DNA of 64,000 nucleotides from Caulobacter sp. (GCF_035254145.1 NZ_DATFAV010000215.1:1229-65228), one strand, 5' to 3'; numbered from the stretch's first letter, positions 6,884 through 28,929 are shown. Numbers and translations: made by a program. The notes: generated from the letters alone by a model not told the origin.

Positions 6884-6934
6884 CCCCCTCAGTCGCTCCG
6901 CGACAGCTCCCCCGCATCACGGGGGAGCATCTTC
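6812..6934. repeat. 123-bp palindromic MITE/REP-like intergenic element
   Basis: 15-bp terminal inverted repeats GAAGATCCTCCCCCG / CGGGGGAGCATCTTC (1 mismatch) and internal hairpins. Confidence 0.8.
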
Positions 6935-10449: not shown

Positions 10450-10476
10450 TCCCAATCTTCCGGGTTCGCGGACACG

Positions 10477-10508
10477 AAAACGCCCCTCGCCTCACGAGGG
10501 GCGTTTTT
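10477..10508. terminator. Rho-independent terminator
   Basis: AAAACGCCCCTCG-CCTCA-CGAGGGGCGTTTTT. Confidence 0.85.
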
Positions 10509-10593
10509 ATTTGGCTGGCTGGCCTTGGCGATCCGGGGCGAGCAAGCCCATAAGGAGGCGCGCCGCGTAACCCGTATTCGAGAGTGATCGCCC

Positions 10594-11925: not shown

Positions 11926-11953
11926 CTGAAGGCCGCGCAGCCGGAGATTTCGC

Positions 11954-13243: not shown

Positions 13244-13245
13244 CC

Positions 13246-14442: not shown

Positions 14443-14502
14443 GCCGGCCGCGCTTTGGCGCGAGGATATCGATGGCGGGTGTTTTTCTGGAGTTCGACGA
14501 CC

Positions 14503-14910
14503 ATGCGTCACCTGATCGGTTTCGCCGCGCTTTGCGCGTTGTCCCTCGCCTCGCCGGCGTTCGCCCAATCACCGGACAAGGCCCCCGAAAAGACCCCCAA
14601 CAAGATCGAGGCCAAGCCCGAGCGAACCTGTTTCCGCGCCGAGGACGTGGACGGCTTTAACGCCGTCGACAAGCAGACCGTCGATGTCTCGGTCGGGGTG
14701 AAGGACGTCTATCGCCTGACCCTGTTCTCGCCCTCGCCCGACATCGACTGGACCCTGCGCATCGGGATCGAGGCGCGGGGGAGTTCGTGGATCTGCTCGG
14801 GCCTGGACGCCACCATCATCGTGCCGGGGCCGATCGGGATCCAGCGCTATCCCGTGACCGCGATCCGCAAGCTCTCGCCCGACGAGATCAAGGCCCGCAA
14901 GAAGCGCTGA
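14503..14910 (+). CDS. Small secreted hypothetical protein (DUF6491-like)
   Basis: Signal peptide MRHLIGFAALCALSLASPAFA; paired Cys; ATG at 14503. Confidence 0.55.
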   Translation: MRHLIGFAALCALSLASPAFAQSPDKAPEKTPNKIEAKPERTCFRAEDVDGFNAVDKQTVDVSVGVKDVYRLTLFSPSPDIDWTLRIGIEARGSSWICSGLDATIIVPGPIGIQRYPVTAIRKLSPDEIKARKKR

Positions 14911-14926
14911 ACCCCTTCGGCTCGGC

Positions 14927-15979
14927 TTACTGAAGCAGCAGGCCCAGCGGCTCGCCGCCGTCCGCATAGGCCACCCGGGTGCGGATGACGTAGCGCTGGC
15001 CGTCGATCAGCTTGGCGCGGATGGCCGCGTTGTCGGACGTGCCCGCATCGTCGGCCGAGGCCAGATGGCGGGGCTCGCCGTTGCGCTCCTCGAACAGCAC
15101 GATGCGCGCATCCGACGCCCCCAGGGTCTGGATCGTGTAGTCGCGCGTGGCGTCGGGCTGGAAGACGAAGTCACGCTGCGCGCCCGCCGCCGCCGGCAGG
15201 GGCGTCACCGACATGGCCGCGATCGGAGCCGCCGGCGCCAGGGCCGGATACCAGTGACCAGCCCAGGTCCGGTCGGTGGGCGACAGCACGATATTCTCGC
15301 CCACGCCGGTGACGTCATAGGGCGCCGGCGCCTTGATCAGCCCTTTGCGGAACGGATAGTGCATGACCGAAGCCGGATCCCAGGCCGAGCCGTCGACACT
15401 GTTGGACGGCAGCTTGGCGATGATGTTGTCGTAGGTCGTCTTGCGGTCCCAGCCGTCGCTGGCCAGGTGGTGGGCATAGACCGCCTCCTCGTCCCAGACG
15501 ATGCCGGCCAGCGGGTTCTGGTGCTCGTGCTCCAGGCCCAGGGCGTGGCCGATCTCGTGCAGGGCGGTGGCGCCGCCCCACGCCGTCGTCAGGTCCCAGC
15601 CGAAGTTCATGTTGCGGTCGCGATCGCGGTTCTTGAGGATCGCCGTGCCCACCCACGACCAGCTGCCGTCGCCTTGCCAGCGGCCAATCAGGATCTCGGC
15701 CTCGCTCTCCTTGGGCTCCTCGCGGAAGGTCAGGCCGGGGGCCACGGTCTTCCATTGGGCGAAGGCGGCGCGCACCACGGCCTTCTGCGCCTCGGGCCAG
15801 TTCCAGTCCTCGCGGACGACGAAGCAGTAGCGCAGCACTGTTCCGTTCATCCACTTGTTGTCGCTGCGCCGGATGGCGAAGGCGCGCCCGGGGGCCAGGT
15901 CGGCCGGCAACGGACGGGCCATCGACGGCGGCTGGGCGCACATCGGCCTATCCTCGGCCGAAGTTCTTTGCTCGGACAT
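14927..15979 (-). CDS. Zincin metallopeptidase (M12/astacin-like) with C-terminal beta-sandwich
   Basis: HEIGHALGLEHEH zinc motif, SVMHY Met-turn; GGAGG RBS; no obvious signal peptide. Confidence 0.88.
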   Translation of the reverse strand: MSEQRTSAEDRPMCAQPPSMARPLPADLAPGRAFAIRRSDNKWMNGTVLRYCFVVREDWNWPEAQKAVVRAAFAQWKTVAPGLTFREEPKESEAEILIGRWQGDGSWSWVGTAILKNRDRDRNMNFGWDLTTAWGGATALHEIGHALGLEHEHQNPLAGIVWDEEAVYAHHLASDGWDRKTTYDNIIAKLPSNSVDGSAWDPASVMHYPFRKGLIKAPAPYDVTGVGENIVLSPTDRTWAGHWYPALAPAAPIAAMSVTPLPAAAGAQRDFVFQPDATRDYTIQTLGASDARIVLFEERNGEPRHLASADDAGTSDNAAIRAKLIDGQRYVIRTRVAYADGGEPLGLLLQ

Positions 15980-15980
15980 C

Positions 15981-17360
15981 TCAATTTCCTCCGTTTACGG
16001 ATTGATCGATGGTCGCCTCGGCCGGGCAAGCCGAACCGCCGGCCGCCAGGATCTCGCGGCAGGCGCGCAGGCGGTTCAGCGTCTGTTGGGTGGTGAGCGC
16101 GTCGATCTCGGACTTCTGGCGCGCCGTCGTGGAATTGGCGGCGGCGAAGGCGGCAGCCTGCTCGGCCGCGCCCGCCAGGCCGGCGGCGATCGTCTCTGCC
16201 CGCGCTTTCGCGGTCCAGCTGGCCTCGGAGGTCCGGCCGAACTTGTCGAGGCTCAGGTTCACGTCGCGGTCCCCGCCCTTCAGGTCGAGAAACTCGACGA
16301 CGCCCCATTGCGGCATGGGCAGGGTTTTGGCGGCCGTGGCCAGAACCTTCCCGCCACCGGCGCCGGACTTGGGCGCCATGAACCCGGCCTCGACAGCGAC
16401 ATAGACCGGACGCGGCAGGCAGACGCCGAGAACGCTCTTCTCGTCCTTCCCGGCCGGCGCGAGCTTCTGCCTGCAGATCTCGGCCTGGGCCGTCTCGGTC
16501 GAAGGGGGGGTCACGCCGGCAGGCGGCGTGACGGTCCACTCGACCTCGAACACCCGGGGCGGGCTATTCTCGGCCAGCCAAGGCAGGTCTTGCTTGTCCA
16601 GGTCCAGCGTCGCCTGGGCGGTGTATGTGCGCTTGCCGCTGGACCCGACAGGTCCCTCCTTCAGGTCGGCGAGCTTCAACCTCTTCGAGATGTCGGCGTG
16701 GAGGATTCCGGCGCGCAACGTGGACCGCTCGGTCAGCAGGCGATCGATCGCCTTGTTCTGAGCGCTGGCGGCGGCAGGATCAGCGGGAATCGCCTTATCC
16801 CGCCATTCCTTGAGTCGGGCGTCGATCTTCTCGATACGCCTCAGCGCGTCCATCGCCTCCGGCGAACAGGCGGGTAGCTTCTGGGCGGCGGGCTCGTCGC
16901 CCCGGCTTGGTGTGAACGCCGGCCCAACGCCCGCCGCGGCGCCGACGACCTGAGCGGCGAATTTGATCGCATCGCCGACGATCGCGCCCAGGCGGTTCTC
17001 GTTGCTGCTGCCCAGGGTGGCGATGGCGCCGGTGTCATGCAGGGTGAGCTTCAGCTGGCGCTTGATAATGCTGCTTTTCAGCTGTCTCGTGGTCAGCGGA
17101 AACTCCGCATTCGATCCGGCCGCCTCGCCCACCACGGCCATTTCGGCGTCCACGGAGGGATCATCGGCGCAAGACTTCAGCGTCAGCGAGATCTTCGCCG
17201 ACACGGCCGTCTCCGGCAGCTTATAGCGGATCAGTTCGAAATTGGGCGCATGTACGCAGGCGGCGGTCGGGCACGCCAGCATGAGCGTCATTGGCCAGGC
17301 CGCGCCGCGCGCCAGCGCGCGAAGACGGGAGCCTGACCCGCTCTTGGATCGATTGGGCAT
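15981..17360 (-). CDS. Hypothetical exported protein, probable lipoprotein
   Basis: ATG at 17360 after GGAGA; positively charged N-terminus, hydrophobic stretch and TAAC lipobox-like motif; stop 1 bp before the peptidase start. Confidence 0.6.
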   Translation of the reverse strand: MPNRSKSGSGSRLRALARGAAWPMTLMLACPTAACVHAPNFELIRYKLPETAVSAKISLTLKSCADDPSVDAEMAVVGEAAGSNAEFPLTTRQLKSSIIKRQLKLTLHDTGAIATLGSSNENRLGAIVGDAIKFAAQVVGAAAGVGPAFTPSRGDEPAAQKLPACSPEAMDALRRIEKIDARLKEWRDKAIPADPAAASAQNKAIDRLLTERSTLRAGILHADISKRLKLADLKEGPVGSSGKRTYTAQATLDLDKQDLPWLAENSPPRVFEVEWTVTPPAGVTPPSTETAQAEICRQKLAPAGKDEKSVLGVCLPRPVYVAVEAGFMAPKSGAGGGKVLATAAKTLPMPQWGVVEFLDLKGGDRDVNLSLDKFGRTSEASWTAKARAETIAAGLAGAAEQAAAFAAANSTTARQKSEIDALTTQQTLNRLRACREILAAGGSACPAEATIDQSVNGGN

Positions 17361-17404
17361 GATGATCTCCTGTTTGAAGGAAGTTCGGACTGAGGGGCGA
17401 CGCC

Positions 17405-17923
17405 TCACGCCGGGGCGTCGAGGCCAAAGACGCGGTCGGCGAGGGCCAGCAGGCCGGAGACCACGATGGCGGCCAGACCGACCAGTTCGCCCCAGGCCGT
17501 CATCCACGCCTCGGGCAGCACGCCCTTGATCGACAGGGCCCAGACGAGAAAGGCGATGGTCGCGGCGGTCGGCGGCCAGGGATGGGGCGTGAACGGCGCG
17601 GGCGGCTGACCGGTGGCGCGCTCGGCTTCTCGCTGTTTGGCGTAGGCCAGGGCCAGATACATGACCGGAGTCAGGACGGCGAAGCCGGCATAGAGCCACA
17701 GACCCAATCGTTCCGGCGGATGCGTCATGGTCGCGACCGCGGCGATCCCGGCCAGGAACAGGGTGATGGTCTCCGCCGGCAGATAGCGGGACAGGGCTTC
17801 GAACACGTCGCCCTTCTCGCCCGCGGGGGGCGGACCGGGCGGTTGACCACCGCCTGGGGCATGAGCCGGGCCGCGGATGGAGCGATTGTCGGCGTGGCGA
17901 CGGGCGAGACTGTTGAGGCTCAT
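17405..17923 (-). CDS. Small membrane protein (about 4 TM) with SRYLPAE motif
   Basis: ATG at 17923 after AGAGGA; Pro/Gly linker followed by hydrophobic helices. Confidence 0.65.
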   Translation of the reverse strand: MSLNSLARRHADNRSIRGPAHAPGGGQPPGPPPAGEKGDVFEALSRYLPAETITLFLAGIAAVATMTHPPERLGLWLYAGFAVLTPVMYLALAYAKQREAERATGQPPAPFTPHPWPPTAATIAFLVWALSIKGVLPEAWMTAWGELVGLAAIVVSGLLALADRVFGLDAPA

Positions 17924-18002
17924 CGTTCCTCTCCATGTCAGGTCGCAAGAGCGCGACGGTGAGCGGAATACGGTCACGCTAGGCCCGCGGCGGGGCGTCG
18001 CC

Positions 18003-18020
18003 GCGTGACGGCCGTCACGC
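18003..18020. promoter_or_regulatory. CRP-type operator (CGTGA-N6-TCACG) in the divergent promoter
   Basis: Perfect 18-bp palindrome GCGTGACGGCCGTCACGC with GTGA-N6-TCAC spacing. Confidence 0.6.
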
Positions 18021-18122
18021 GCTGAGAGAGAAGAGCCCACTCCGTGCACGATGACGTTGTGCCCGCGTGCGGTGTCTGCCAGTCTCCGTTCGGGGAACCT
18101 TGGTTTTTAGGCGAGGGGCGCC

Positions 18123-19868
18123 ATGGACGCGGATCAGCCCGCGGCGGCGCGCTATTGGGCGTTCGTCAGCTATAGTCACAGGGACGCGGCGCGCGGCCGG
18201 CGGCTGCATGGGCGCCTGGAGCGCTATGTCCTCCCGCGGCGCCTCGTCGGCCGGATCACGCCGCGCGGCCGCACGCCTCGCCGCCTGGCGCCGATCTTCC
18301 GCGATCGCGAGGAGTTTCCCGCCGCGCACGACCTCAGCACCGAGGTGCGCGCGGCGCTTTCGGTCTCCAACGCCCTCATCGTGATCTGCTCGCCCAACGC
18401 GGCCGCCTCGCCCTGGGTGGCGCGCGAGATCGAGCTGTTCCGCGCCCTGCACCCGGACCGGCCGATCCTGGCGGCCCTGATCGCGGGAGAACCGGACACG
18501 GCCTTCCCCGCTCCGTTGCGCGACCACGCCGAACCCCTGGCCGCCGACTTCCGCCCGGCCGGCGACGGCGAGCGGCTGGCCCTGCTGAAGCTGGTCGCGG
18601 GCATGGCCGGCGTCGGGCTGGACGAACTGATCCAACGCGATGCGCAACGTCGTCTGAGGTCCGTGACGGCCGTCACGGCGCTGTCCCTGTCGGCGGTGCT
18701 AGCCATGGGTCTGCTTACGGCCTTCGCCCTGAGCGCCCGGGACGAGGCCCAGCGACAGCGGGGCCTGGCCCTGGCGGCTCTGGACGAGGCGCGGACCCAG
18801 AGGACGCTGGCCCTGAACGCCCGCGACGAAGCGCAACGGCAAAGGGCCTCGGCCCTGCGGGCGCGCGACGAAGCCCGGCGTCAGCGCGCCGTCGCGCTCG
18901 ACGCCCGCGCCGAGGCCGAGGACCAACGACTGGAAGCCATGGCGATGGTGGAGTTCATGCTGACCGATCTGGGCGACAAGTTGAAAGGCAGCGAACGGCT
19001 GGCGGTGCGCAGCGCCGTCAACCAGCGCGCGCTCGACTACTACGCCGGTCAGCGCCGACTGCCCCCGGCCGCGACAGCCCAGCTCGCCCGGCTGCAAACC
19101 GCCCGGGGCGCGATCTTCGAAGAGAGCGGCGATCTGGATGCGGCGATGATGAAGTTCGCTCAGTCCTTCAGGACCACCACGCGCCTCAGCGAGGCGGCGC
19201 CGAAGAACGCGGCCTACGTCTTCAACCACGCCCAGAACGAGGCCTATGCGAGCAAGGTGGCGTTCATCCGCGCGGACTGGAAGACGGCCCAGGCCGGCTA
19301 CCGGCGCTACAACGCCCTGGCCGAACGCCTGATCGCGCTCCGGCCCGACAATCTCGATTACCGCCGGGAGATCGGCTACGCGCAGGGCAACCTTTGCTCG
19401 GTGGCCTTGCGGATGCGCGACACGCCCGCGGCGCTGGACTATTGCGGCCGGGCGCTGCGGACGATGCGCGACATCGAGGACCGCACGGTCGAGTTGCGGC
19501 GCACCGCCGCGTCCGACGTCGCCAATCGTCATGCCTGGATGGCCGACGTCCGCCAACGCCAGGGCGACCTGACCGGCGCCATGGCCGAGCGGGAGGCGCA
19601 GGAGAAGATCCTCGCCGCCCTCCTGGCCGAGCGCCCCAAGGACCTGGACACCCGCGCCGACTGGATCGCCCTACAGCAGGGCTTGGCCAGCCTCGCCTAC
19701 GCCGCCGGAGATCGCGCCGGCGCCCTCAAGCGCCTGAACGACGTGCGACCGACGGCCGTCACCCTCCTGGAGGACGACACCGACCGGCAGCGCGCCAAGA
19801 AGCTGCTGGCCCAGATCGACGCCAGACTCACCTACTTCAACCAACAAGCGAAGGAAGATCGGAAATGA
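18123..19868 (+). CDS. TIR domain - TM - coiled-coil stalk - TPR protein (cassette 1)
   Basis: AFVSYSHRD, IFRDREE, LIVICSPNAAASPWVAREIELF (TIR); one TM helix; TPR-like helical repeats. Confidence 0.85.
   Translation: MDADQPAAARYWAFVSYSHRDAARGRRLHGRLERYVLPRRLVGRITPRGRTPRRLAPIFRDREEFPAAHDLSTEVRAALSVSNALIVICSPNAAASPWVAREIELFRALHPDRPILAALIAGEPDTAFPAPLRDHAEPLAADFRPAGDGERLALLKLVAGMAGVGLDELIQRDAQRRLRSVTAVTALSLSAVLAMGLLTAFALSARDEAQRQRGLALAALDEARTQRTLALNARDEAQRQRASALRARDEARRQRAVALDARAEAEDQRLEAMAMVEFMLTDLGDKLKGSERLAVRSAVNQRALDYYAGQRRLPPAATAQLARLQTARGAIFEESGDLDAAMMKFAQSFRTTTRLSEAAPKNAAYVFNHAQNEAYASKVAFIRADWKTAQAGYRRYNALAERLIALRPDNLDYRREIGYAQGNLCSVALRMRDTPAALDYCGRALRTMRDIEDRTVELRRTAASDVANRHAWMADVRQRQGDLTGAMAEREAQEKILAALLAERPKDLDTRADWIALQQGLASLAYAAGDRAGALKRLNDVRPTAVTLLEDDTDRQRAKKLLAQIDARLTYFNQQAKEDRK
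18735..18938 (+). repeat. About 5 imperfect 42-bp (14-aa) tandem repeats, ARDEAxRQRxxALx
   Basis: ARDEAQRQRGLALA/ALDEARTQRTLALN/ARDEAQRQRASALR/ARDEARRQRAVALD/ARAEAEDQRLEA. Confidence 0.85.
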
Positions 19869-20497
19869 GCAATCCAACCCGCCTTCTCAGCCAAGAGAAT
19901 AAGTTCGGCAGGATTTCGGGCAACAGGCCCGTCGATTTTAACCCCAAGAAGGTCTTCCATGTCTTTCTGACCATGGATCTATCCAAACCGGGAGACTTAC
20001 AGTTCAACGTCCTGCAGCCGCAGGGGAGCCCTTTCAAATATAAAAGCGATAAAGAACTCGAAGCTTATGCTCTCGGCGCATACGAACATGGCAAATCCTC
20101 GCCGGTTCAATTTCTTCCGAATACGCAATACGATATCGTCGTCAGCGAACAATGCTGGATTATTCTACAACTTGATCCAAGTATTGAAAATTGGCAGTTC
20201 GCACTCGGTGAATTCGGCTGCACGACAAAGAGCGACACAAACGATCGCAACTGCTACCTGCGTCATGTCTATCCTGGACAACTGGGCAAACCAGGCGATC
20301 CCGTCGACAGGAACGGATGCCAGGTTCTCTACTTCGGCGTCTTTCGGCGCGGGGCGCGCGACTCCAACGACGCCAACGACCTGCCGAGCGAACTCTTCAA
20401 CTTCCACACCGAGTTCCTCCAAGCCGCCCTTGGCGCGCGCCTGCCGGTGATCTTCGACCCGGACATCAAGAACGACGCCGACAACAACTTTCCCTAG
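19865..20497 (+). CDS. Hypothetical protein with C-terminal DPDIKN motif (DP-EP/AidA-like beta-sandwich?)
   Basis: ATGA overlap with the TIR gene; 210 aa; AT-rich 5' two-thirds. Confidence 0.7.
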   Translation: MSNPTRLLSQENKFGRISGNRPVDFNPKKVFHVFLTMDLSKPGDLQFNVLQPQGSPFKYKSDKELEAYALGAYEHGKSSPVQFLPNTQYDIVVSEQCWIILQLDPSIENWQFALGEFGCTTKSDTNDRNCYLRHVYPGQLGKPGDPVDRNGCQVLYFGVFRRGARDSNDANDLPSELFNFHTEFLQAALGARLPVIFDPDIKNDADNNFP

Positions 20498-20508
20498 CCC
20501 GCATCGCC

Positions 20509-20532
20509 CCCGGAAGCCGCGAGGCTTCCGGG
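20509..20532. terminator. GC hairpin with GCGA tetraloop between the DP protein and cyclase-like genes
   Basis: CCCGGAAGCC-GCGA-GGCTTCCGGG followed by ACGTTTTG. Confidence 0.55.
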
Positions 20533-20572
20533 ACGTTTTGCTCCATGCGTTCCAGTTCCAGCGAGTACCGGC

Positions 20573-22105
20573 TTGTCCCAATCTTCTCCGCTCGTCGACA
20601 TCATGGCCCTCGCCCGGACGGGCGCGGTCGAGGAGGCCTGGCGGCTGTTTGGCGAATCCGGCCTGGCCGCCGCCCAGGATCCCGCCGCCCTCACGCTGAA
20701 AGGGCGGCTGCTGAAGGACCGCGCGCGGACGGCGCGAGGCCAGGCGCGTCGCGACCTGTTCGTCGAGGCCGCGGCCGCCTATCGCCAGGCGGCGCAACGG
20801 GGCCAGGGCGCCTACGCCTTGATCAACGCCGCCACCCTGTCCCTGCTGGCGGGGGAGATCGAGGCGGCGCGCGCCAACGCCCTGGCCGCCCTCGATGCGC
20901 CTGACAACGACACGCCCTACTATCAGGGCGCGACGCGGGCCGAGGCCCTGCTCGTCCTTGGACGGACGGACGAGGCGAAGGCCGCGCTGACCGAGGCGGT
21001 GTCGCGCGCGCCTCGCGCCTGGGAAGACCACGCCGTCACCCTGCGGCAGTTCCGCCTGATCCTGACCGAACAGGGCCAGGGCGACGACTGGCTCTCGGTG
21101 CTGACCCCGCCCCGCGCCTTGCACTTCACTGGCCACATGGCCCTGTCGGCCGACGAAGGCCTGGCCGGCCGTATCGCCGACGTGCTTGGCCAGGAGAAGG
21201 TGGCGTTCGGCTACGGCGCGATCGCCGCCGGCGCCGACATCCTGATCGCCGAGGCCCTGGTCGAGGCCGGCGCGGCGCTGCACGTGGTGTTGCCGACCAA
21301 CGCCGAAGTGTTCCGCGAGCGGTCCGTCCGTCCGTGGGGCGAGGCCTGGGTGGCGCGCTACGACCGGCTTCTGGTCCTGGCCGACAGCGTGCAGGCGACC
21401 ACCCCCGACCTGGCGCGGGTCTCGCGAGACGCGATCGCCCTGGCCGACGAGACCGCGATGGGGATGACGGTGCTCAAGGCCGCCAGCCTGGCCGGCGAAG
21501 CCCTGCAATTGGCCATGCTGGATCCCGAGCGCCCCGACGCCAGCGGATCGGCCGCCGCGCGCTGGCGAGGCGCCGGCCGCCGCCAGCAGCTGATCGAGGT
21601 TCGTCGCCTGCCGCCCGCCCAAGGCGCGGACGAGCCGACGCCTCCAGAACGGGCGCCGACCGCCCTGCTGGGCTGCGCGCTGGACCTGCCCCTGGACGCC
21701 GATCCGACAGAAGCCCTCGCCACGCTGTCGCGTGTCCTCGCCGCCGCGCCCGCCGGCGTCGCCGCGCCCGCCTGGACCGGCCGCCAATTGCTGCTCGCCT
21801 ACGCCACGCCCGGCCAGGCGGCCCAGGCGGCGGCCGCCTTGCGCGCGGCGCTGGGCCCACGGGCTCGGCTGGCGGGCGCCCATGGTCTGGCGCGGCTGGC
21901 GGCCAGCCCCGTCGGCCACGGGACCATCGCCATCGGTCGGGGGGCCGAGATCGTGACCGCCTATCTCGCGGTGACGCCGCCCGGCGCGGTCTATCTGGAC
22001 CTGCCGTTCGCCGCCGCCCTCTGCGTCGACGCCCCGCCGGACCTAGTCGGCAAGATCATGAACCTGACCGGCGACGCCCTGGGTCCCTACGCCCTTCGCC
22101 CCTAG
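20573..22105 (+). CDS. TPR (DUF4071/TPR-S-like) - SLOG - degenerate class III cyclase-like protein
   Basis: LALARTGA, LKGRLLKD, YALINAATL, FTGH, FGYGAIAAGADILIAE; collinear with 23939..25684 but both cyclase Asp motifs are missing; TTG start. Confidence 0.75.
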   Translation: MSQSSPLVDIMALARTGAVEEAWRLFGESGLAAAQDPAALTLKGRLLKDRARTARGQARRDLFVEAAAAYRQAAQRGQGAYALINAATLSLLAGEIEAARANALAALDAPDNDTPYYQGATRAEALLVLGRTDEAKAALTEAVSRAPRAWEDHAVTLRQFRLILTEQGQGDDWLSVLTPPRALHFTGHMALSADEGLAGRIADVLGQEKVAFGYGAIAAGADILIAEALVEAGAALHVVLPTNAEVFRERSVRPWGEAWVARYDRLLVLADSVQATTPDLARVSRDAIALADETAMGMTVLKAASLAGEALQLAMLDPERPDASGSAAARWRGAGRRQQLIEVRRLPPAQGADEPTPPERAPTALLGCALDLPLDADPTEALATLSRVLAAAPAGVAAPAWTGRQLLLAYATPGQAAQAAAALRAALGPRARLAGAHGLARLAASPVGHGTIAIGRGAEIVTAYLAVTPPGAVYLDLPFAAALCVDAPPDLVGKIMNLTGDALGPYALRP

Positions 22106-22111
22106 CGCCCC

Positions 22112-22780
22112 CTATTCGATCAGGCCTTCCAATCGCTTGGGCGCGACGATGATCAAGGCCTGGGCGGTGCGCCTGATCACCCCTCGCCGCTCCAGCGCGC
22201 TGACCGCGCGCGACACGGTCTCGCGCGTCGTCTGCAGGTCCAGCGCCAGGGCCGCCAGGACGGGCGGAGGGCTGATGGTCCAGTTGTGGGGTTCGGCGCG
22301 CCGCAGCAGCTCGGCATGGATCCGGCCCACGGCGCTCAGGGTGTTGCGGTCGATGATGCGCTCGGTCGACCCCCGCAGTCGGGCCAGCAACATCCGCGAC
22401 AGGGCCAGGCCCACGCAGCTGTGACGCTCCAGCAGGCGCAGGAAGTCCAGGGCCGCGAACACCGCCGCGCGGGCCGTCTCCAGCGCGGTCACCTCGGTCT
22501 CGCTGCGCGCGCCGGGCTGCACGGTGGCGCCGAACAGGTCTCCGGGCGCGTAGTCGTAAAGCAGGATCGCGTTTCCGGTCCGCCCCACGGCGGCGGCGCG
22601 CGCCCGGCCCAGGGTCAGCAGGTAGGTCTCGGCGCAACGGTCGCCCTGGCGGATGATCACCCCGCCCGGCTGATAGGCGCGCTCGACCGCCGCCGCGGCG
22701 ATGCCGCCGGCCACGTCCTCCGGACAGTGGAAGACCTCCCGCGCGAAGGCGGCCAATGCGGACTGATGAGCAGACGACAT
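22112..22780 (-). CDS. Crp/Fnr family regulator with atypical cNMP pocket
   Basis: IIRQGD, PGDLFGA, HTH TTRETVSRAVSALERRGVI; ATG at 22780. Confidence 0.88.
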   Translation of the reverse strand: MSSAHQSALAAFAREVFHCPEDVAGGIAAAAVERAYQPGGVIIRQGDRCAETYLLTLGRARAAAVGRTGNAILLYDYAPGDLFGATVQPGARSETEVTALETARAAVFAALDFLRLLERHSCVGLALSRMLLARLRGSTERIIDRNTLSAVGRIHAELLRRAEPHNWTISPPPVLAALALDLQTTRETVSRAVSALERRGVIRRTAQALIIVAPKRLEGLIE

Positions 22781-22864
22781 CCAACGCCCCCCGCGTCGAC
22801 CCTCGCCAGCATGGCACGAGCCGCCAAGCGCGGACAACCGGCTCGCGGACCCGTCGCCCCTGGC

Positions 22865-23233
22865 TTATTGCGGCCGATCCCGCAGGGCTTCGACAATCAC
22901 CCGGTTGGCGGTTTCACAGCGGCTCTCCCCGAACTGGCGCTCGATCCTCGGCAGGGCCTTGAAGCGGACCTCCAGCTCGGCGGCGGCCGCCTGGGCCCGC
23001 CCCGCGGCCTGGCGCGACTCGGCCAGGCGCTCGCGAGTCTGGGCCAGTTCGGCCAGAATACCGTCGCGGTCGGCGGAAAGGTCGGCCATCTCGCGCCTCA
23101 CCCGCGCCAGCCGCGCCCGCAGGCGAAGCAGCCGCGTCGCCAGCCACGCCACCACCGCCGGCAAACCGATCGACAGGATCTGGGCCGCGAGGATCACGGC
23201 GGGGGTGTCGGTCAGGCTCAGCGGGACGACCAT
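22865..23233 (-). CDS. Small TM + coiled-coil hypothetical protein (122 aa)
   Basis: ATG at 23233 after GAGAAAG; hydrophobic helix followed by heptad-like LARVRREMADL... Confidence 0.5.
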   Translation of the reverse strand: MVVPLSLTDTPAVILAAQILSIGLPAVVAWLATRLLRLRARLARVRREMADLSADRDGILAELAQTRERLAESRQAAGRAQAAAAELEVRFKALPRIERQFGESRCETANRVIVEALRDRPQ

Positions 23234-23461
23234 GTCTTTCTCTACATCCGGGATTAGCGGGCGACGCTGTGAAGACCCGAGCGGCCGCGCCGCCCAGGTC
23301 CTCCACGACGGACGTCCAGTCGTCCTGAAGACGCTGGAGTCCGTCGACTTGCCGCCCCAATTTCCCCACCGGGGCGACAACCTCTTGAAACAACACTTGC
23401 TGGCGCGAGCGCGCGGCGGCGAACGGGTCCGGCGCCGGGTCGCGCGCCGAACGGCAGCGGA

Positions 23462-23662
23462 TTACGCCCTCAAGCCGCTGGGCTGTCGGCCGTCGTCGAT
23501 CGTGGCCAGGGCGAAATCCAAGACCTCGCCGATCACCCCGGACAGACTGTCTTCGGCCACGCCCTGTTCGCGAGCCCAGATCTTAAGGGCGTGGCGAAGG
23601 AAGGTCGTGCCGGCCTCCGGCGCGCGCCCGGCTTCGGCCATGGCGAAATCGTTCACGGACAT
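23462..23662 (-). CDS. Small hypothetical protein (66 aa)
   Basis: ATG at 23662 after GCAGGAG; GC3-biased codons. Confidence 0.5.
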   Translation of the reverse strand: MSVNDFAMAEAGRAPEAGTTFLRHALKIWAREQGVAEDSLSGVIGEVLDFALATIDDGRQPSGLRA

Positions 23663-23836
23663 GGCGCGGCTCCTGCTCGGTTCGGGACGCGGGGTCCCTT
23701 GGGAGATTTGAAAAGTGGACCCGGCCGGCGGTGACCGGGCCCCAGTTCGGTTCACGCGGCCGGAAGCTCTGGGTCAGGAACTGGCTCATCGCGTCCGGTC
23801 GACGCCTGAACCATGTGTGGTGAAGCTGTTTTTGGA

Positions 23837-23852
23837 TGTGCCGATTTTCACA
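23837..23852. promoter_or_regulatory. CRP box TGTGC-N6-TCACA
   Basis: TGTGCCGATTTTCACA, 9 of 10 consensus positions, in an AT-rich intergenic region. Confidence 0.7.
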
Positions 23853-23938
23853 TCAAGAGAAATAACGGTTTTTCCTCAGTCGCCCTGAAGACGCCCTGAA
23901 GGCGCCCTGAGCCCCGCGAAGACGGCGGCGCGCTTCAG

Positions 23939-25684
23939 TCAGGCGCGCGAAAGAGAGAAGATCGGGGTCGCCGCAAAGCCCTTGCGCCCTTGGGTTCGCC
24001 CGACATAGCCGCACCGCACGCGGTCGCCGTGGAAGGTGGCCAGCGCGCCGGCCAAGGCCTCGCTGACATAGGCCGAGCCGGGCGCGACGTCCGGCTCGAT
24101 ACGCGCGGCGACGACGACATGGGCGCCGATCACGGCCGGCGCCTTGGTCAGCGGGTTGGTGCGCAGATGCACGGGTCCGTAGTGGCCGCCGATCCGCAGC
24201 CCCAGCCCCCGCGGCAGCCCAAGGCTTCGCATGTCCAGCGCCCGGTGCGCCTCCAGTAGGGCCAGGGCCGCCAGCGCCGCGTCGATCGGTTGGTCGAAGA
24301 CCAGGAAGAGGCCGTCGCCCCAGGTCTCGACATGGCGTGGCGGCGCCTCCAGCCCCTCGACGACCTCGGCGATACGGCCCATCACCCCCTCGATGAAGGC
24401 CGGGATCTGGTGATCTCGCAGAGCGCCGAAACCCTGGACGTCGGCGAACAGCATGGCCTTCATCGCCCGCGCGCCGACCTCGACCGGCGAGATAAGGCGG
24501 GGCGGACGCGGGGTCGGGCGGTCGATCGGGATCACCGTCGCCGGGCGATCCCCCCGCGCCCAGTAGGCCAGGTCGGATGAGACGCCGGCGGGGCCGGGCG
24601 CGTCCTGGCCGTCCCACACCGCCAGTTGCACCGCCTGGGTCGAAAGGGTCTGGGCCCGCAGCACCGCGCAGCCCATGGCGAACTGACTGGCGTAGGCGAA
24701 CACCTGCTCGTCGCCGAGATAGGCGTCCTGCGAGGCGTAGCGGATGGAGGTCGCCCGCGCGAGGCAGCGCTCGAAGCGGTCGACCCAATCGGGTCCGAAC
24801 GGCTCCACCGACACCTCGACGAAGGAGGCTCGACTGACCGGCAGGACGACGTGCAGCTCGGCGCCGGCGTCCAGCAGCGCCTCGGCGAAGACGATGTCGG
24901 CGCCCGCGGCCAAACCGCCATAGCCGAAGCCGACCCGCTGTGTCCGCAGCGCCTCGTCGATACGCGCCCGCAACGCCGTGTCGGCCACGTCCAGGATGTG
25001 GCCGGTGAAATGGGCGCAGACCGGCGGACGAAACGGTGCGAGCCACGCGGCGTCCAGGCCGGTCTCGTGGCACAGCATCTCCAGCTGGCGCAGGGTCGAG
25101 GCGTGGGCGGCGTAGGCGCGCGGCGCCAGGGTCAGGCCCTGCGCCAGGGTTTGGCGCGCGCCGTCCAGGTCGCCGATGAGGAAACGGGCCTCGGCGAGGC
25201 TGGCGGCCACATAATAGGCCGCCTCGCCTGTCAGGCCCGGCGGGGTGTCCATCGCCAGGACCGATCGGGCCTGGTCCGCCGCGCCCGCGCGGTCTCCCGC
25301 CACCAGGGTCATGGTCGCGGCGTTGATGGCGCCATAGGTCCCGCCCGACCGCTCGGACAACGCTTCGTATCGCCGGCGCGAGGCCTTGGCGAACGCGGCG
25401 CGGCGCGCCCCCCGGCTGGAGAGGGCGACGTCCTTCAGCAGCCGGGCGCCCAGCGCGACCGTGTCGGCGTCCGCGTCCTGGGCCAGGCCCAGACGGACAT
25501 ATTCGGACCGCGCGAAATCAAGGGCGCCCGCCCGCGCCAAGCACAGCACCGCCGCATAGGCGGCGGCGCGCGGAGCCTCGCCCCCCTCCAGCGCGGCGTG
25601 GGCGATGTCGTAGGCGGCGAGGATTTCGCCGCGCCGGATCAGCGCGGCGACCGCCTCACCGTCGAACGGCGGGTCTGCGCTCAG
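23939..25684 (-). CDS. TPR (DUF4071/TPR-S-like) - SLOG - class III nucleotide cyclase
   Basis: FGYGGLAAGADIVFAE (SLOG), MLFADVQGF, ETWGDG, RIGGHYGP, AARIEP; frame open upstream of GTG 25549 to CTG 25684. Confidence 0.85.
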   Translation of the reverse strand: MSADPPFDGEAVAALIRRGEILAAYDIAHAALEGGEAPRAAAYAAVLCLARAGALDFARSEYVRLGLAQDADADTVALGARLLKDVALSSRGARRAAFAKASRRRYEALSERSGGTYGAINAATMTLVAGDRAGAADQARSVLAMDTPPGLTGEAAYYVAASLAEARFLIGDLDGARQTLAQGLTLAPRAYAAHASTLRQLEMLCHETGLDAAWLAPFRPPVCAHFTGHILDVADTALRARIDEALRTQRVGFGYGGLAAGADIVFAEALLDAGAELHVVLPVSRASFVEVSVEPFGPDWVDRFERCLARATSIRYASQDAYLGDEQVFAYASQFAMGCAVLRAQTLSTQAVQLAVWDGQDAPGPAGVSSDLAYWARGDRPATVIPIDRPTPRPPRLISPVEVGARAMKAMLFADVQGFGALRDHQIPAFIEGVMGRIAEVVEGLEAPPRHVETWGDGLFLVFDQPIDAALAALALLEAHRALDMRSLGLPRGLGLRIGGHYGPVHLRTNPLTKAPAVIGAHVVVAARIEPDVAPGSAYVSEALAGALATFHGDRVRCGYVGRTQGRKGFAATPIFSLSRA

Positions 25685-26088
25685 GGAACCCGGCCCGCGC
25701 CGTTCTCGACGTCAGGATCGAGATCGATCTTCTGTTCGTGGCCGTCCAGCATGAACAGGCTGTAGGTGTAGACGCCCATCCGCGCGCATTCGTAGATCAC
25801 CTTGAAGCAGGTGCGCTCGGCGAACGTCGCGCGGCCAGGCCACTCGGTCACCCAGACATAGCTGGAGAAGTTGACGCCATAGTCGTCGGCGACCTTGATC
25901 GGCCGGCGCTGGAAGGTCCATCCGGCCTTGATCAGTTGGTCGCTGAGCACGAAGACCAACTCGCAGCGCTCGCTGAGATCCAGCTTGAGCCGCGTCGGCT
26001 TCGTCGGATCCGCGAAGTTCATGAAATTGAAGTTGTCATCCAGGCCGATGACCAGTTCGACGACTTTACGAGGTGTGGGTTCAGTCAT
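25681..26088 (-). CDS. Hypothetical protein with C-terminal DPDVEN motif (DP-EP/AidA-like?)
   Basis: 135 aa; ATGA overlap with the TIR gene; beta-strand pattern. Confidence 0.7.
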   Translation of the reverse strand: MTEPTPRKVVELVIGLDDNFNFMNFADPTKPTRLKLDLSERCELVFVLSDQLIKAGWTFQRRPIKVADDYGVNFSSYVWVTEWPGRATFAERTCFKVIYECARMGVYTYSLFMLDGHEQKIDLDPDVENGAGRVP

Positions 26089-28148
26089 TCGTGCGCCTCC
26101 CGAGCTTGAGCTAAAGCTTCACCTACGGTGGAGTCTCGCCAGAAGGCAAGGAACCCCGGGTGGGCGTATCCATGCTTGGCAAGGTCGCTGACGATGCTCG
26201 CGGCCTGGTCGGCCCGGCCATCCGCGAGATAGGCGCGGGCCAGGATGTCCAGGCTGGCGGGCGAGAGCGAGGCCCGACGCGCGCCCAGGACCTCGACGGC
26301 GGCGCCGCCACGTCCCGCCGCCCATTCCGCGAAACCATAGAGCGCGGCGCTATCGGCCTCCTTTCGCCAGTTCGTGACCTTCATGCGCGCGGCCAGCGCC
26401 TCTGACATCCGTTGAGCCTTAGCGGACTGTCCGCCGCGCCGCGCCAGGATGATCGAAAGCTGGTCCAGCCGGCCGTCCAGATCGGCGCGCCAGGCCTCGG
26501 CCTTGGGGCCGGATCGCAGTCGGGCCAGCATCGCGGCCGCGTCGGCGCGAGCGGCCTCGGCCTCCTTGAGCCGGCCCGACCACATCGCCAGCTCCAGGGT
26601 GTCCATTCGCCCGATCATCAGAAATTCGCGCCACCGAACATTGGTCGGGTCGAGCGCGGCCAGGTCTTGGAGCCGCGCGACGTTGCGCTCGGACCTGGCC
26701 CGCGCCTCCGCCCCTCGACCAAGATCAAGGTCCAGCCGGGCCAGCGCCAGTTCGGCCCCCACGCTCCGCACCCGCAGGCGCTTGTCGGCCGGATATTTCG
26801 CGATGGCTTGCGACAGGATGCGCACCGCGGCCTCGCGTTCGGCCAGCGCCTCGCGCGGACGTCCCAGCCGCAGCAGGCAGTCGGCGGCCCAGGCCCGCGA
26901 ATTGGCCGCGCCTTCCAGCAAGGTCCGATCCTGTGGGGCGCGCGCGCGTTCCGCCTCGAACACGGCCTGGCCGGCGCGGAACGCCTCCAACGCCTCGGTC
27001 GGCCGATCCTGCTCGAACAGCAAGGTGCCGAGATTGTTCTTGGCGTACGCGACCTCGACCCGCCACTCGGGACGGTTGGGATCGATCGCCACCAAGGTCT
27101 GGGCCAGGTCGCCGTAGCGCTTGAAGCCGCGCTCGGCGCCGGCGACATCCTCGCGCCGCCATTCCACATAGGCCTGCCAGAAGACGTTCTGGGCCTCGTC
27201 GAAGATGCGCTCGCCGTTGCGCGGATCGCGCTGGACCAGGGCGTGGGTCGTCGCCGCCGCCTGGCTGAAGGCGTCCTGGGCGCCGGCCAGGTCGCCGCGC
27301 TGCTCGCGGATGGTGCCCAGCAAAGTCTGAGCCTTGGCGCGCTGGCCGAGCGCCTTGTCGTCGAGGCGCTCGGTCGGCGCCTTGGCGTAGTAGGCCAGGA
27401 CCTTGGCGCTGACGCCGTCCAGCACATCCAGCCGCCCCACCGGCTCGAGCTGCTGGCGCAGGTCGCCCAGCATGAAGGCCACCAGCGCCTCGGTCTCGTC
27501 GCGCTGTTGCCGGGCGATCTGGCGGGACTTCAGCGTGGCAACCGTCATGGCGCCCATGCCGATCGCCAGGACAACAGCCGCGGCGGTGAACGCCGCCATC
27601 ACCTGCAGGCGTCGGCGCGCGTCGCGTTGGACCAGCTGATCCAGGCGCACGCCCAGCAGTTGCGCGGCGATTTTCAGGCGCGCCAGACGAGGGCCGTCGC
27701 CGTCCCGGCGCAGGTCCACGGCCAGGGGCTCGACGCCCTGCGGCAAAATAGCGCGGAGGGCGGGCGGCAGCACCGCGTCCAGCGCCGTTCCAGCCGGCAG
27801 TCCCGGCGCGATCACGCAGATGATCCGGCCAGCGTCCCGGGTCTTCAGGAAATAGTCGACCTCCTGATCCACCCAGCGCGAGGCGGCGGAAGCGGGCGAA
27901 CACAGCACGATCAGGGCGTCAGAGCGGTCCAGAGCGCTGCGGATCACCTCGTTCAGGTCCAGCGAGGCGCTCAGTTCGTCGCGATCGCGGAAGATCGGGC
28001 GCAGCGTCCGCCAGCCCCCATCGTTCTCGCCCTTGGCCAGTCCGCGCGGCGCCCGATAGGCCTCCAAGGCGCGATGCAGCCAAACAGCGGTTTTGAGATC
28101 GCGGTGACTATAGCTGATAAAGGCTCTGTACCGCTGTCGACTATCCAT
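26085..28148 (-). CDS. TIR domain - TM - TPR protein (cassette 2)
   Basis: AFISYSHRD, IFRDRDE, LIVLCSPASAASRWVDQEVDYF; TM helix; TPRs; ATG at 28148. Confidence 0.87.
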   Translation of the reverse strand: MDSRQRYRAFISYSHRDLKTAVWLHRALEAYRAPRGLAKGENDGGWRTLRPIFRDRDELSASLDLNEVIRSALDRSDALIVLCSPASAASRWVDQEVDYFLKTRDAGRIICVIAPGLPAGTALDAVLPPALRAILPQGVEPLAVDLRRDGDGPRLARLKIAAQLLGVRLDQLVQRDARRRLQVMAAFTAAAVVLAIGMGAMTVATLKSRQIARQQRDETEALVAFMLGDLRQQLEPVGRLDVLDGVSAKVLAYYAKAPTERLDDKALGQRAKAQTLLGTIREQRGDLAGAQDAFSQAAATTHALVQRDPRNGERIFDEAQNVFWQAYVEWRREDVAGAERGFKRYGDLAQTLVAIDPNRPEWRVEVAYAKNNLGTLLFEQDRPTEALEAFRAGQAVFEAERARAPQDRTLLEGAANSRAWAADCLLRLGRPREALAEREAAVRILSQAIAKYPADKRLRVRSVGAELALARLDLDLGRGAEARARSERNVARLQDLAALDPTNVRWREFLMIGRMDTLELAMWSGRLKEAEAARADAAAMLARLRSGPKAEAWRADLDGRLDQLSIILARRGGQSAKAQRMSEALAARMKVTNWRKEADSAALYGFAEWAAGRGGAAVEVLGARRASLSPASLDILARAYLADGRADQAASIVSDLAKHGYAHPGFLAFWRDSTVGEALAQAREAHE

Positions 28149-28182
28149 GCGTCGCCCCCGACCGACAGCAGGAGCGTACTCG

Positions 28183-28929
28183 ATGAAAACGTTTTCGCCA
28201 TCATCCTCGCGCGCTTCGTCCACTGGGGCGGACGGGCTTTCGCCGAACGACCACCGGGCCAACCGGATCTTCCGGCACATGTCGCCCGAGGAGATCAGCG
28301 CGCTGGGGCCGTCGATCGAGCACCTGACCTACGGCAAAGGCGAGATGATCCTTCAGCGTCGTGACGAGGAAGGCGGGATCTATCTGTTGCTGGAGGGCGT
28401 CCTGCTGGCCAATCAATACGCCCGCTCGGGCCGCGAGGTCGGCTATCGGCGCATCGCCGCCGGCAGCTATTTCGGCGAGATCTCGGCGATCGACGGCCTG
28501 CCCCGCTCGGTCAACGTCGTGGCGCTGGAGGATGCGCGCATCGCGCGCCTGCCTCAGTCGCTGGTCCGTCGCCTGTTCGAGGAATCGCCGCGCTTCATGA
28601 AGGCGCTGCTGGAGGACATGGCGGGCCTGGCCCGGGCCCTGACCGACCGCCTGTTCGAGCTGACCGCCGTGTCGGTGGCCTGCCGGGTCGACATCGAGTT
28701 GCTGCGGATGGCTGGCGTGGCGGGCGGCGACGGCCAGCGCGCGGTGATCAGCCCCTGCCCCACCCATGCCGAACTGGCCGCCCTGCTGGGCAGCCAGCGC
28801 GAGCCGGTGACGCGGGAGCTGAACCGCCTGGCCGGCCTGGGCATCGTGCGCCAGACCGGCCGCACCCTTCACGTCCTCGACCTCCCGGCCCTGGCCGGAG
28901 AGGTCGAGCGGATCGGCGGGGAGATCTAG
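28183..28929 (+). CDS. Crp/Fnr family regulator with canonical cNMP pocket
   Basis: YFGEISAIDGLPRS phosphate-binding cassette, HTH SQREPVTRELNRL; ATG at 28183 after CAGGAG. Confidence 0.9.
   Translation: MKTFSPSSSRASSTGADGLSPNDHRANRIFRHMSPEEISALGPSIEHLTYGKGEMILQRRDEEGGIYLLLEGVLLANQYARSGREVGYRRIAAGSYFGEISAIDGLPRSVNVVALEDARIARLPQSLVRRLFEESPRFMKALLEDMAGLARALTDRLFELTAVSVACRVDIELLRMAGVAGGDGQRAVISPCPTHAELAALLGSQREPVTRELNRLAGLGIVRQTGRTLHVLDLPALAGEVERIGGEI

Follow-up and report, generated by a model that had tools for sequence, protein, structure and literature searches.

Two inverted TIR and TPR-S/SLOG cassettes with Crp regulators in Caulobacter, a candidate nucleotide-signalling module

Introduction

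What is signalled, and to what end, by a locus in which genes for TIR proteins stand beside genes for SLOG-containing, cyclase-related proteins and for CRP/FNR-family regulators? We examined such a locus in Caulobacter sp. (GCF_035254145.1, NZ_DATFAV010000215.1:1229-65228), where positions 14,927 to 28,929 of a 64,000-nucleotide stretch of DNA, here called the window, hold two gene cassettes in mirror image. Each encodes a TIR protein (A1 or A2), a small protein with an Asp-Pro motif near its C-terminus (B1 or B2) and a protein with TPR-S and SLOG domains (C1 or C2), and is accompanied by a regulator gene (Crp1 or Crp2). An original prediction, made from the sequence alone, had read the locus as a two-messenger relay, running from a membrane TIR sensor through a SLOG-gated cyclase to Crp. 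In our best reading the locus would represent two paralogous copies of a widely distributed nucleotide-signalling module, cassette 2 being the complete and ancestral copy and cassette 1 a derived, accessory one.

Two Paralogous Cassettes in Inverted Orientation

The window has a GC content of about 68%, and its genes were told apart by GC content at third codon positions (GC3). Calls of open reading frames (ORFs) combined with GC3 place the two inverted cassettes where the original prediction had put them. The genes and sites of the system are listed below; cNMP stands for cyclic nucleotide monophosphate and HTH for helix-turn-helix.

18123-19868, + strand: A1 (cassette 1), with a TIR domain, a transmembrane helix, 14-amino-acid tandem repeats and a TPR region; paralogue of A2 (TIR_2 3.5e-9; motif SPWVARE)
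19865-20497, + strand: B1 (cassette 1), a 210-amino-acid member of pNTSase1 with a C-terminal FDPDIKN (PF20301, E 2.4e-10)
20573-22105, + strand: C1, with TPR-S, SLOG and a truncated cyclase-homology domain lacking the catalytic residues (TPR-S 5.6e-9; no Guanylate_cyc match)
22112-22837, - strand, start probably at 22780: Crp1, a CRP/FNR-family regulator convergent with C1 (cNMP_binding 1.5e-10; HTH_Crp_2 8e-9)
22865-23233, - strand: conserved 122-amino-acid protein with an N-terminal transmembrane helix and a coiled coil, after the 66-amino-acid ORF (no Pfam match)
23462-23662, - strand: 66-amino-acid ORF downstream of C2, a candidate Crp target (same position in C. segnis and in locus L004)
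23837-23852, no strand assigned: CRP-type palindrome TGTGCCGATTTTCACA between the C2 stop codon and the 66-amino-acid ORF (perfect TGTG-N8-CACA)
23939-25549 as called from a GTG, probable CTG start at 25684, - strand: C2, with TPR-S, SLOG and a class III cyclase-like domain (TPR-S 6.8e-6; Guanylate_cyc 4e-5)
25681-26088, - strand: B2, a 135-amino-acid all-beta protein with Asp124-Pro125 11 residues from the C-terminus (AlphaFold/Foldseek; no Pfam match)
26085-28151, - strand: A2 (cassette 2), with a TIR domain, one transmembrane helix and a TPR region of about 480 amino acids (ThsB_TIR 5e-12; TIR_2 6e-12; TPR matches)
28147-28929, + strand, start probably at 28183: Crp2, a CRP/FNR-family regulator divergent from A2 (cNMP_binding 1.5e-16; HTH_Crp_2 3.7e-11)

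A1 and A2 are paralogues (35% identity over 518 amino acids, BLASTP E 2e-69), as are C1 and C2 over their N-terminal 348 amino acids only, TPR-S and the middle domain (40%, E 5e-65), and the two Crp regulators are 29% identical. An ATGA overlap joins the A and B genes at both junctions (A1/B1 and A2/B2). Paralogous cassettes on opposite strands, coupling of B to the TIR gene through ATGA and two Crp regulators had all been foreseen, and all are seen here, each regulator matching cNMP_binding and HTH_Crp_2 in Pfam.

Distribution of the C Family and Its Partners

Relatives of the TPR-S/SLOG half of C2 are abundant (2808 among 50%-identity cluster representatives, 695 of them at E < 1e-30), and a scan of one genome per species found a C homologue in at least 584 species. 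The family spans Alphaproteobacteria, Actinomycetota, Gammaproteobacteria, Burkholderiales, Acidobacteriota and Cyanobacteria. TPR-S is present in all of 83 C-family representatives, accompanied by Guanylate_cyc in 38, by BTAD in three and by a fused cNMP-binding domain in two. For the 80 species loci that matched best, genes were counted up to 3 kb away from the C homologue: 52 loci have a TIR gene, 31 have a Crp-like gene and 22 have both.

The partner of C varies among lineages. In Alphaproteobacteria it is a TIR protein with a transmembrane helix and a TPR region, and a B-like gene comes next; Actinomycetota have instead a TIR-WD40 protein of about 960 amino acids, whose gene directly abuts C, and no B gene. 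B-like genes were looked for in loci with other TIR partner types, and none was found. Crp-like ORFs lie immediately downstream of C in three Actinomycetota loci (L021, L024 and L028), with the Crp domains confirmed for L021. That the same gene set recurs across phyla and in varying gene order argues strongly for a joint function of TIR and C and, less universally, of Crp. The original prediction had tied its fate to co-occurrence in other genomes, and its components do recur there. A variant of the arrangement is seen in the Burkholderiales locus L014, where two signal-peptide proteins of 237 and 293 amino acids (positions 6171-7735) are encoded between the TIR gene and the C homologue instead of B.

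The C Proteins

Both C proteins had been predicted to combine TPR, SLOG and class III cyclase domains. TPR-S matches at the N-terminus, in C1 above the Pfam cut-off and in C2 at 27.1 bits, just below the cut-off of 27.6. The SLOG region of C gave no match in Pfam, NCBIfam or PDB sequence-profile searches, and a C-family profile built from the 83 representatives and compared with the PDB retrieved cyclases (down to 8.5e-16) and the TPR region of ASK1, leaving the middle domain unmatched. The AlphaFold model of C2 residues 160-355 (pLDDT 88.7, pTM 0.85) has high-probability Foldseek matches to ShosA, DprA, type I and type II LOG, YgdH, TT1465 and Moco carrier protein, the probability being 0.98-1.0 for ShosA, DprA, LOG and Moco carrier protein and 0.84-0.87 for YgdH; ShosA is the best structural match. 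Because these matches are all members of the SLOG superfamily, a SLOG fold is supported for the middle domain of C2, and the assignment holds at the level of the modelled fold. The SLOG claim is thus borne out by structure prediction on these residues, without support from Pfam.

The cyclase claim fared differently in the two cassettes. Residues 365-504 of C2 match Guanylate_cyc at 23.7 bits (cut-off 21.9), and alignment to solved cyclases indicates that the metal-binding D370 and D412 and the catalytic R483 are kept. Both metal Asp and the catalytic Arg are likewise kept by about 80% of the C-family members that have a cyclase domain, the residue columns having been counted over 134 C-family members. 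In place of the specificity Lys C2 has Glu (Asn in most of the family); it has Ala as the second specificity residue and Val instead of the transition-state Asn (mostly Thr, Ser or Ala in the family). We regard the class III cyclase domain of C2 as plausibly active but non-canonical, and since its specificity residues are non-canonical the product cannot be named. In C1, the first metal Asp is replaced by Ala, the second by Arg and the catalytic Arg by Ala; there is no Guanylate_cyc match, and hhalign pairs the tail with no more than the C-terminal two thirds of the cyclase domain (99.35%, E 6e-21). Judged by these residues, the C-terminal domain of C1 is a truncated, dead cyclase-homology domain. 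As a short tail of the C1 type occurs in 41 of the 134 C-family representatives, C1 belongs to a regular subfamily and is not a local accident. Of the architecture first proposed, TPR-S and SLOG hold for both cassettes, while the cyclase stands in C2, with non-canonical specificity, and falls in C1, whose catalytic residues are lost.

The start of C2 is also unusual. The 45 codons upstream of its GTG are stop-free, contain no ATG, GTG or TTG and encode an N-terminus conserved in orthologues (FD.E.VAALIRRGEILAAYDIAHAALE). A CTG at 25684-25682 overlaps the TGA of B2 (CTGA), an arrangement also seen in C. segnis. C2 is probably a protein of 581 amino acids, started via translational coupling at this non-canonical CTG.

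The TIR Proteins

A1 and A2 both match TIR_2/ThsB_TIR in Pfam and carry the S-x-W-x3-E motif (SPWVARE in A1, SRWVDQE in A2), the Glu of which is the catalytic residue of TIR NADases. A Glu is kept at the equivalent place by the TIR partners of C homologues elsewhere, and A2 is 68.5% identical to its syntenic orthologue in C. segnis. The order TIR, transmembrane helix and TPR region, with the catalytic Glu in place, therefore agrees in both proteins with what had been described. No cNMP-binding domain was found among the Pfam matches of A1 and A2.

Two further features were seen in and near A1. A 42-nt unit repeated 3.8 times at 18726-18884 encodes 14-amino-acid 'ALxARDEAQRQR' units directly after the transmembrane helix, forming a juxtamembrane stalk; A2 is without such a stalk. 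Additionally, an identical perfect 16-nt palindrome, CGTGACGGCCGTCACG, occurs twice, at 18004-18019, 104 nt upstream of the A1 start codon, and at 18662-18677, inside A1.

Crp Regulators and a Conserved Operator

Crp2 carries YFGE...PRS, and the cNMP-binding cassette GE...R[ST]A is kept both in Crp2 and in most Crp genes adjoining C homologues. In Crp1, FGA...RSE replaces FGE...RS. The Glu of this cassette contacts the ribose in E. coli CRP, and on its sequence Crp1 has lost that residue. The position of Crp2 is conserved in Caulobacter loci L001, L004 and L006-L008 and in the Sphingomonadales locus L009, and a Crp gene is found at the position of Crp1 also in L003 and L004.

The original prediction had the cassettes surrounded by CRP-type sites. 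In effect, matches to the CRP consensus are not enriched in the window (8 vs 10.2 expected), and a single perfect TGTG-N8-CACA occurs within the 64 kb, at 23837-23852, in an AT-rich part of the interval from the C2 stop codon to the 66-amino-acid ORF. In an alignment of six Caulobacter loci its half-sites and part of its core are invariant, the spacer being otherwise poorly conserved. This invariant site is, by comparative reasoning, the phylogenetic footprint of a CRP/FNR-type operator. The 66-amino-acid ORF is conserved at the same position in C. segnis (54%) and L004 (82%), its orthologues in L001 and L004 having no Pfam family on record. The 122-amino-acid protein is conserved in C. segnis (57%) and in L004 (78% by BLASTP, 89% by local alignment), and in the present strain Crp1 follows the two ORFs on the same strand. 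These two ORFs are the best candidates for a regulated output.

Immediately 3' of the C2 stop codon and before the AT-rich operator stretch, an 11-nt unit, CGCCCTGAAGA, is repeated 2.7 times (23881-23910). FNR-like TTGAT-N4-ATCAA sequences with at most two mismatches number 16 in the whole window against 5.5 expected, a count that no shuffle reached; three of them lie inside the coding sequence of C2 or A2 and none in the cassette promoters.

The B Proteins

B1 belongs to Pfam pNTSase1 (PF20301; 41 bits vs a cut-off of 25), a family described by Pfam as 'Predicted novel nucleotide synthetase'. All of the 16 homologues found for B1 are PF20301 members, one of them named 'nucleotide synthetase' in UniRef. 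For B2 there are 93 homologues, none with a Pfam family and every source-named one from Caulobacter; B2 itself has no PF20301 match even at E 10, and BLASTP detects no similarity between B1 and B2 (E 0.19). Profiles of the two families nevertheless align collinearly over 105 columns in hhalign (E 0.01), and MAFFT aligns a C-W/E strand, W-x-F, a Tyr and h-h-h-D-P-D-h-x-N. Given the collinear profile alignment, the shared motifs and the same coupled position after the TIR gene, homology of B1 and B2 is likely, not proven. The claim of a DPD[IV]xN protein in both cassettes is thus upheld for position and Asp-Pro motif, while a likeness of B1 to B2 does not emerge from BLASTP.

B-like ORFs ending in h-h-h-D-P are located between A and C in Sphingomonadales, Kordiimonadaceae, Maricaulis, Rhodothalassiaceae and Rhodospirillaceae. 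Among 25 B proteins from six alphaproteobacterial lineages the only invariant columns are Asp124-Pro125 (B2 numbering), which lie 9-16 residues before the C-terminus; a nucleotide-binding motif is not apparent in these proteins. The AlphaFold model of B2 is all-beta (pLDDT 87.1), and its top 12 Foldseek matches in the PDB are all SO1698 of Shewanella oneidensis ("an aspartic peptidase"), with template modelling (TM) scores of 0.58-0.65 (query) and 0.67-0.71 (target) and E down to 5e-5; other folds follow at about 0.4. Osipiuk and co-workers reportedly found in 2012 that SO1698 cleaves its own Asp116-Pro117 bond, nine residues from the C-terminus, and the titles of its PDB entries list D116A and P117A mutants. 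Comparison with DP-EP had been suggested at the outset, and it yielded an SO1698-like fold for B2 in Foldseek; Pfam and PDB sequence-profile searches gave no match of B to SO1698/DP-EP.

On the model, B2 most likely self-cleaves at Asp-Pro, since it combines an SO1698-like beta-sandwich fold with the invariant Asp-Pro, and B would more likely be a DP-EP-type self-processing protein than a nucleotide synthetase. We read B2 as a putative accessory or regulator of A, not as a nucleotide synthetase. The 'nucleotide synthetase' label of PF20301 gains in this way a concrete alternative, self-cleavage at an invariant Asp-Pro. As a minor point, B1 and C1 share a reading frame, with the B1 stop codon and a stop-free 75-nt spacer between them; the relation is found also in L003 and L004, not in L005, and is probably coincidence.

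Synteny and Variability between Strains

Orthologues of C2, 69-95% identical to it, carry the source name Caulobacter. In C. segnis ATCC 21756 cassette 2 occurs alone, in the order Crp, A-B-C, a 67-amino-acid ORF, the 122-amino-acid ORF, DUF5690, beta-lactamase, CarD and ferredoxin, and this flank is also found in the window at 9251-13243. Since C. segnis has cassette 2 only, beside the same flank, the window carries about 9 kb extra. This insertion (13244-22865) comprises NhaA, DUF6491, an M10/astacin-like protease, a 456-amino-acid lipoprotein, a transmembrane protein, cassette 1 and Crp1. It is present in L004, a metagenome contig that has the complete mirrored layout, and absent at the syntenic place in C. 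segnis ATCC 21756; at its edges there are no tRNA or integrase genes. A cassette-1-type A-B-C-Crp set is found in Caulobacter sp. Root1455 at an unrelated locus. Cassette 2 thus behaves as vertically inherited core genome in Caulobacter, and cassette 1 as an accessory element. A mobile-element or defence-island context was considered for the locus and rejected: there are no tRNA genes, and the annotated large ORFs of the window have ordinary chromosomal functions, with no integrase, transposase or defence protein among them.

Comparison with L004 reveals a sharp local divergence. Flanking genes are 92-97% identical, and among the cassette 1 proteins A1 (94.8%), C1 (87.8%) and Crp1 (96.3%) stand against B1 (52.5%). 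Nucleotide identity to L004, elsewhere 90-96%, drops from about 92% to 38-74% exactly across B1 (19865-20540) and recovers at the start of C1. Between L003 and L005, B is again the fastest-evolving (67.5%, vs 83% for A and 79% for C). B2 is conserved between window and L004 (94.8%). B1 is a probable hot spot of allelic replacement, and replacement confined to it is a pattern that specificity determinants typically show when selection favours diversity. This variability would lend cassette 1 a conflict-system flavour that cassette 2 does not share.

A Candidate Relay and Its Alternatives

The best reading of cassette 2 is a relay from TIR to SLOG-cyclase to Crp, every step of which we infer and to which we give an even chance of being right. 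A2 would span the membrane once, its TIR domain lying in the cytoplasm and its TPR region outside it, and an envelope cue would activate the TIR domain. With its catalytic Glu kept, this domain could turn NAD+ into an ADP-ribose-derived signal, which would bind the TPR-S/SLOG half of C2 and switch on the cyclase-like domain to yield a cNMP. Crp2 might then read the cNMP through its canonical cNMP-binding cassette and act at the TGTG-N8-CACA site upstream of the 66- and 122-amino-acid ORFs. There is precedent for the middle step: 3' cyclic ADP-ribose (3'cADPR) is the ligand of SLOG in type I Thoeris, and in type VIII the effector that answers to cADPR contains TPR (bioRxiv 10.64898/2025.12.03.692087). 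We also entertain, tentatively and as more probably wrong than right, a fuller two-messenger cascade in which the membrane TIR product gates the SLOG-cyclase, the cNMP drives a dedicated Crp regulon, and B is a self-cleaving Asp-Pro module whose hypervariable surface (in B1) or released tail of 10-16 residues sets the input specificity or activation threshold of TIR.

To cassette 1 the relay does not apply as it was stated. With a dead cyclase domain in C1 and no ribose-contacting Glu in Crp1, cassette 1 can neither make cNMP nor run the relay itself; probably it either modulates cassette 2 or has an altered read-out. Since class III cyclases function as dimers, the dead domain of C1 could pair with the catalytic domain of C2; such C1/C2 pairing is speculation.

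Several points weigh against the relay even in cassette 2. What supports it is residue conservation, fold, co-occurrence and precedent, the biochemical steps all being ones that we infer. The SLOG match is moderate, with TM scores of 0.40-0.44 for the best Foldseek matches. C2 is without the canonical Asn and without either specificity pair, Lys/Asp for adenylyl or Glu/Cys for guanylyl cyclases, and its domain may make a product other than a cNMP or be weakly active. The placement of the TPR region of A outside the cell comes solely from topology reasoning, and Pfam calls the family of B a nucleotide synthetase. Among the 80 neighbourhoods 28 are without a TIR gene and 49 without a Crp-like gene, so the relay is not obligatory for the C family. 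RNA evidence was sought as well, and the sole run containing about 99% of the sampled words was a soil-metagenome DNA run; it is from soil metagenome alone that the strain is known.

How else could the locus be explained? The order might be the reverse, as in Pycsar and Pucsar, with C sensing and making the cNMP, TIR serving as an NAD+-depleting effector and Crp forming a parallel transcriptional branch. Cyclase and TIR defence pairs in which a cNMP activates the TIR effector are presented, under the name Pucsar, in a preprint (10.64898/2026.08.12.744502); PycTIR models of PADLOC weakly match the cNMP-binding domains here, and a Thoeris survey counted every PF00211-containing operon as Pycsar. 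Nevertheless, A1 and A2 have no cNMP-binding domain, and their other module, a transmembrane helix with TPR (WD40 in other phyla), looks like an input. The cNMP-binding domains sit instead on HTH regulators, SLOG is a known receiver of TIR products, and the locus belongs to the core genome outside any defence island; we therefore find the reverse order quite unlikely. The locus could also be a Thoeris-like abortive-infection defence whose cyclase is a toxic effector, through nucleotide depletion or a flood of cNMP, while Crp only autoregulates. Pairing of TIR and SLOG is the hallmark of type I Thoeris, A1 and A2 have ThsB-type matches in Pfam and PADLOC, the best structural match of the SLOG domain is ShosA, a protein of the Shosta defence system, and B1 shows allelic diversification. 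Such a role fits poorly with the vertical inheritance and synteny of cassette 2 across Caulobacter, among housekeeping genes, and with the commonness of dead-cyclase proteins of the C1 type (41/134), a poor match for an enzymatic killer; moreover, a dedicated cNMP-binding transcription factor with a conserved operator points to gene regulation. We deem it rather unlikely.

The Pfam annotation suggests yet another possibility, namely that B, as a pNTSase1 protein, produces the messenger as a nucleotide synthetase of a new kind, with TIR and/or SLOG processing or sensing it in an anti-invader conflict system. It draws on the match of B1 to PF20301 and the UniRef name of its homologue, on the hypervariability of B1 between near-identical strains, often found in conflict systems, and on the accessory nature of cassette 1, which lies in a variable insertion. 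The structural evidence points elsewhere, the B2 model being a small beta-sandwich with SO1698 as its sole strong structural relative; Asp-Pro is the sole motif invariant in the 25 B proteins, with no nucleotide-binding motif evident, the TIR-WD40 versions do without B, and PADLOC has no model for B or C. We judge a synthetase role unlikely. That the genes form no functional unit at all, being adjacent by chance or through local duplication of unrelated genes, is exceedingly improbable: CRP-like sites are indeed not enriched, and the protease and lipoprotein neighbours are not conserved with the cassette elsewhere, but the same genes are found together in other phyla and genomic surroundings and are translationally coupled, so that co-occurrence already contradicts this idea.

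Relation to Known Systems

PADLOC assigned no system to the locus; it gave weak ThsB-type matches for the TIR proteins, PycTIR-model matches on the cNMP-binding parts only and no ThsA match. An NCBIfam search of the locus proteins added nothing, and a literature search found no experimental description of the combined system. The claim that this combination had not been described experimentally therefore stands, no paper having been found and no system assigned by PADLOC, whereas its parts are not unrecognised, since pNTSase1 (PF20301) and TPR-S (PF20308) are already curated for conflict/signalling systems.

The closest parallel on the input side is type I Thoeris (ThsB TIR with ThsA SLOG-SIR2), where, as here, the gene for a TIR protein with the catalytic Glu adjoins that for a SLOG-fold protein, the expected receiver of a TIR-made ADP-ribose (ADPR) derivative. 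The output is different, being here a class III cyclase-like domain (dead in C1) and not SIR2, a transmembrane or a Macro domain, and the TIR domain is fused to a transmembrane helix with TPR or to WD40. Moreover, the present locus adds a small DP-type protein and a dedicated Crp, lies in syntenic core genome and has no ThsA match in PADLOC. Type VIII Thoeris, composed of TIR and ThsI (TPR with a CMP-hydrolase-like domain, activated by canonical cADPR), is similar in having an N-terminal TPR followed by a nucleotide-processing domain. The TPR domain of ThsI was earlier predicted to act in TIR signalling (bioRxiv 10.64898/2025.12.03.692087), and we suspect, likening the two by description, that it is of the TPR-S type. 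By the same description ThsI acts as the toxic effector of an operon for defence against phage, unlike the TPR-S/SLOG and cyclase arrangement with a transcription factor seen here.

Pycsar and Pucsar share with the locus a PF00211-type cyclase domain encoded together with a cNMP-binding protein. In contrast, the cNMP-binding domain is here fused to a Crp HTH (HTH_Crp_2) and not to a TIR or transmembrane killing module, and the cyclase has N-terminal TPR-S and SLOG and different specificity residues. In its proposed logic the locus resembles CRP/cAMP and sensor-regulated class III cyclases, an N-terminal sensor gating a C-terminal cyclase whose product would be read by a CRP-family regulator with a TGTG-N8-CACA-type site; it differs in that the input would be an NAD+-derived TIR product acting via SLOG and the regulator is dedicated and locally encoded. 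As for B, SO1698/DUF1888 (DP-EP) is the only strong structural match of B2 and both have Asp-Pro about 10 residues from the C-terminus, yet B has no detectable sequence similarity to it, and SO1698 is not known as linked to TIR, SLOG or cyclase genes. Pfam itself comes close to part of the system: B1 and C1 pass the pNTSase1 and TPR-S cut-offs, C2 is marginal and 83/83 C-family representatives match TPR-S. The functions given by Pfam are nonetheless predictions, the fold of B argues against a synthetase and B2 is not recognised by the model. Both families presumably stem from computational work of the Aravind group.

As its parts are already catalogued as Pfam pNTSase1 and TPR-S, the kind of system is not categorically new. 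What we consider new is the SLOG assignment at fold level, the link of B to SO1698/DP-EP, the subfamily with a dead cyclase, the conserved operator with its candidate targets, the core synteny of cassette 2 and the B1 hot spot. To our knowledge, every bacterial TIR signalling system characterised so far, each a type of Thoeris, has a toxic effector as its output. In the module described here a cyclase-like domain and a transcription factor take that place; at least 584 species encode the module, and in Caulobacter it is core genome. If true, the relay would link NAD+-derived and cyclic-nucleotide messengers, and would represent a regulatory, non-suicidal use of bacterial TIR signalling. Operons containing PF00211 were set aside as Pycsar in a recent systematic survey of TIR, which would, for that reason, have missed operons of this kind.

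Other Genes of the Insertion

Three further genes of the insertion lie upstream of A1:

14927-15979, - strand: M10/astacin-like metalloprotease (Peptidase_M10 3e-9; Astacin 6e-7)
15981-17351, - strand: predicted lipoprotein of 456 amino acids, like the metalloprotease in the 9-kb insertion and of uncertain link to the system
17405-17924, - strand: multi-transmembrane protein of about 172 amino acids, divergent from A1 (no Pfam match; homologues in L004, 83%, and L005, 49%)

The metalloprotease and the lipoprotein were considered as members of the system and rejected: both are present in L004, but their equivalents in L003 and L005 have no BLASTP similarity to them. The homologues of the multi-transmembrane protein in L004 and L005 adjoin cassette-1-type loci.

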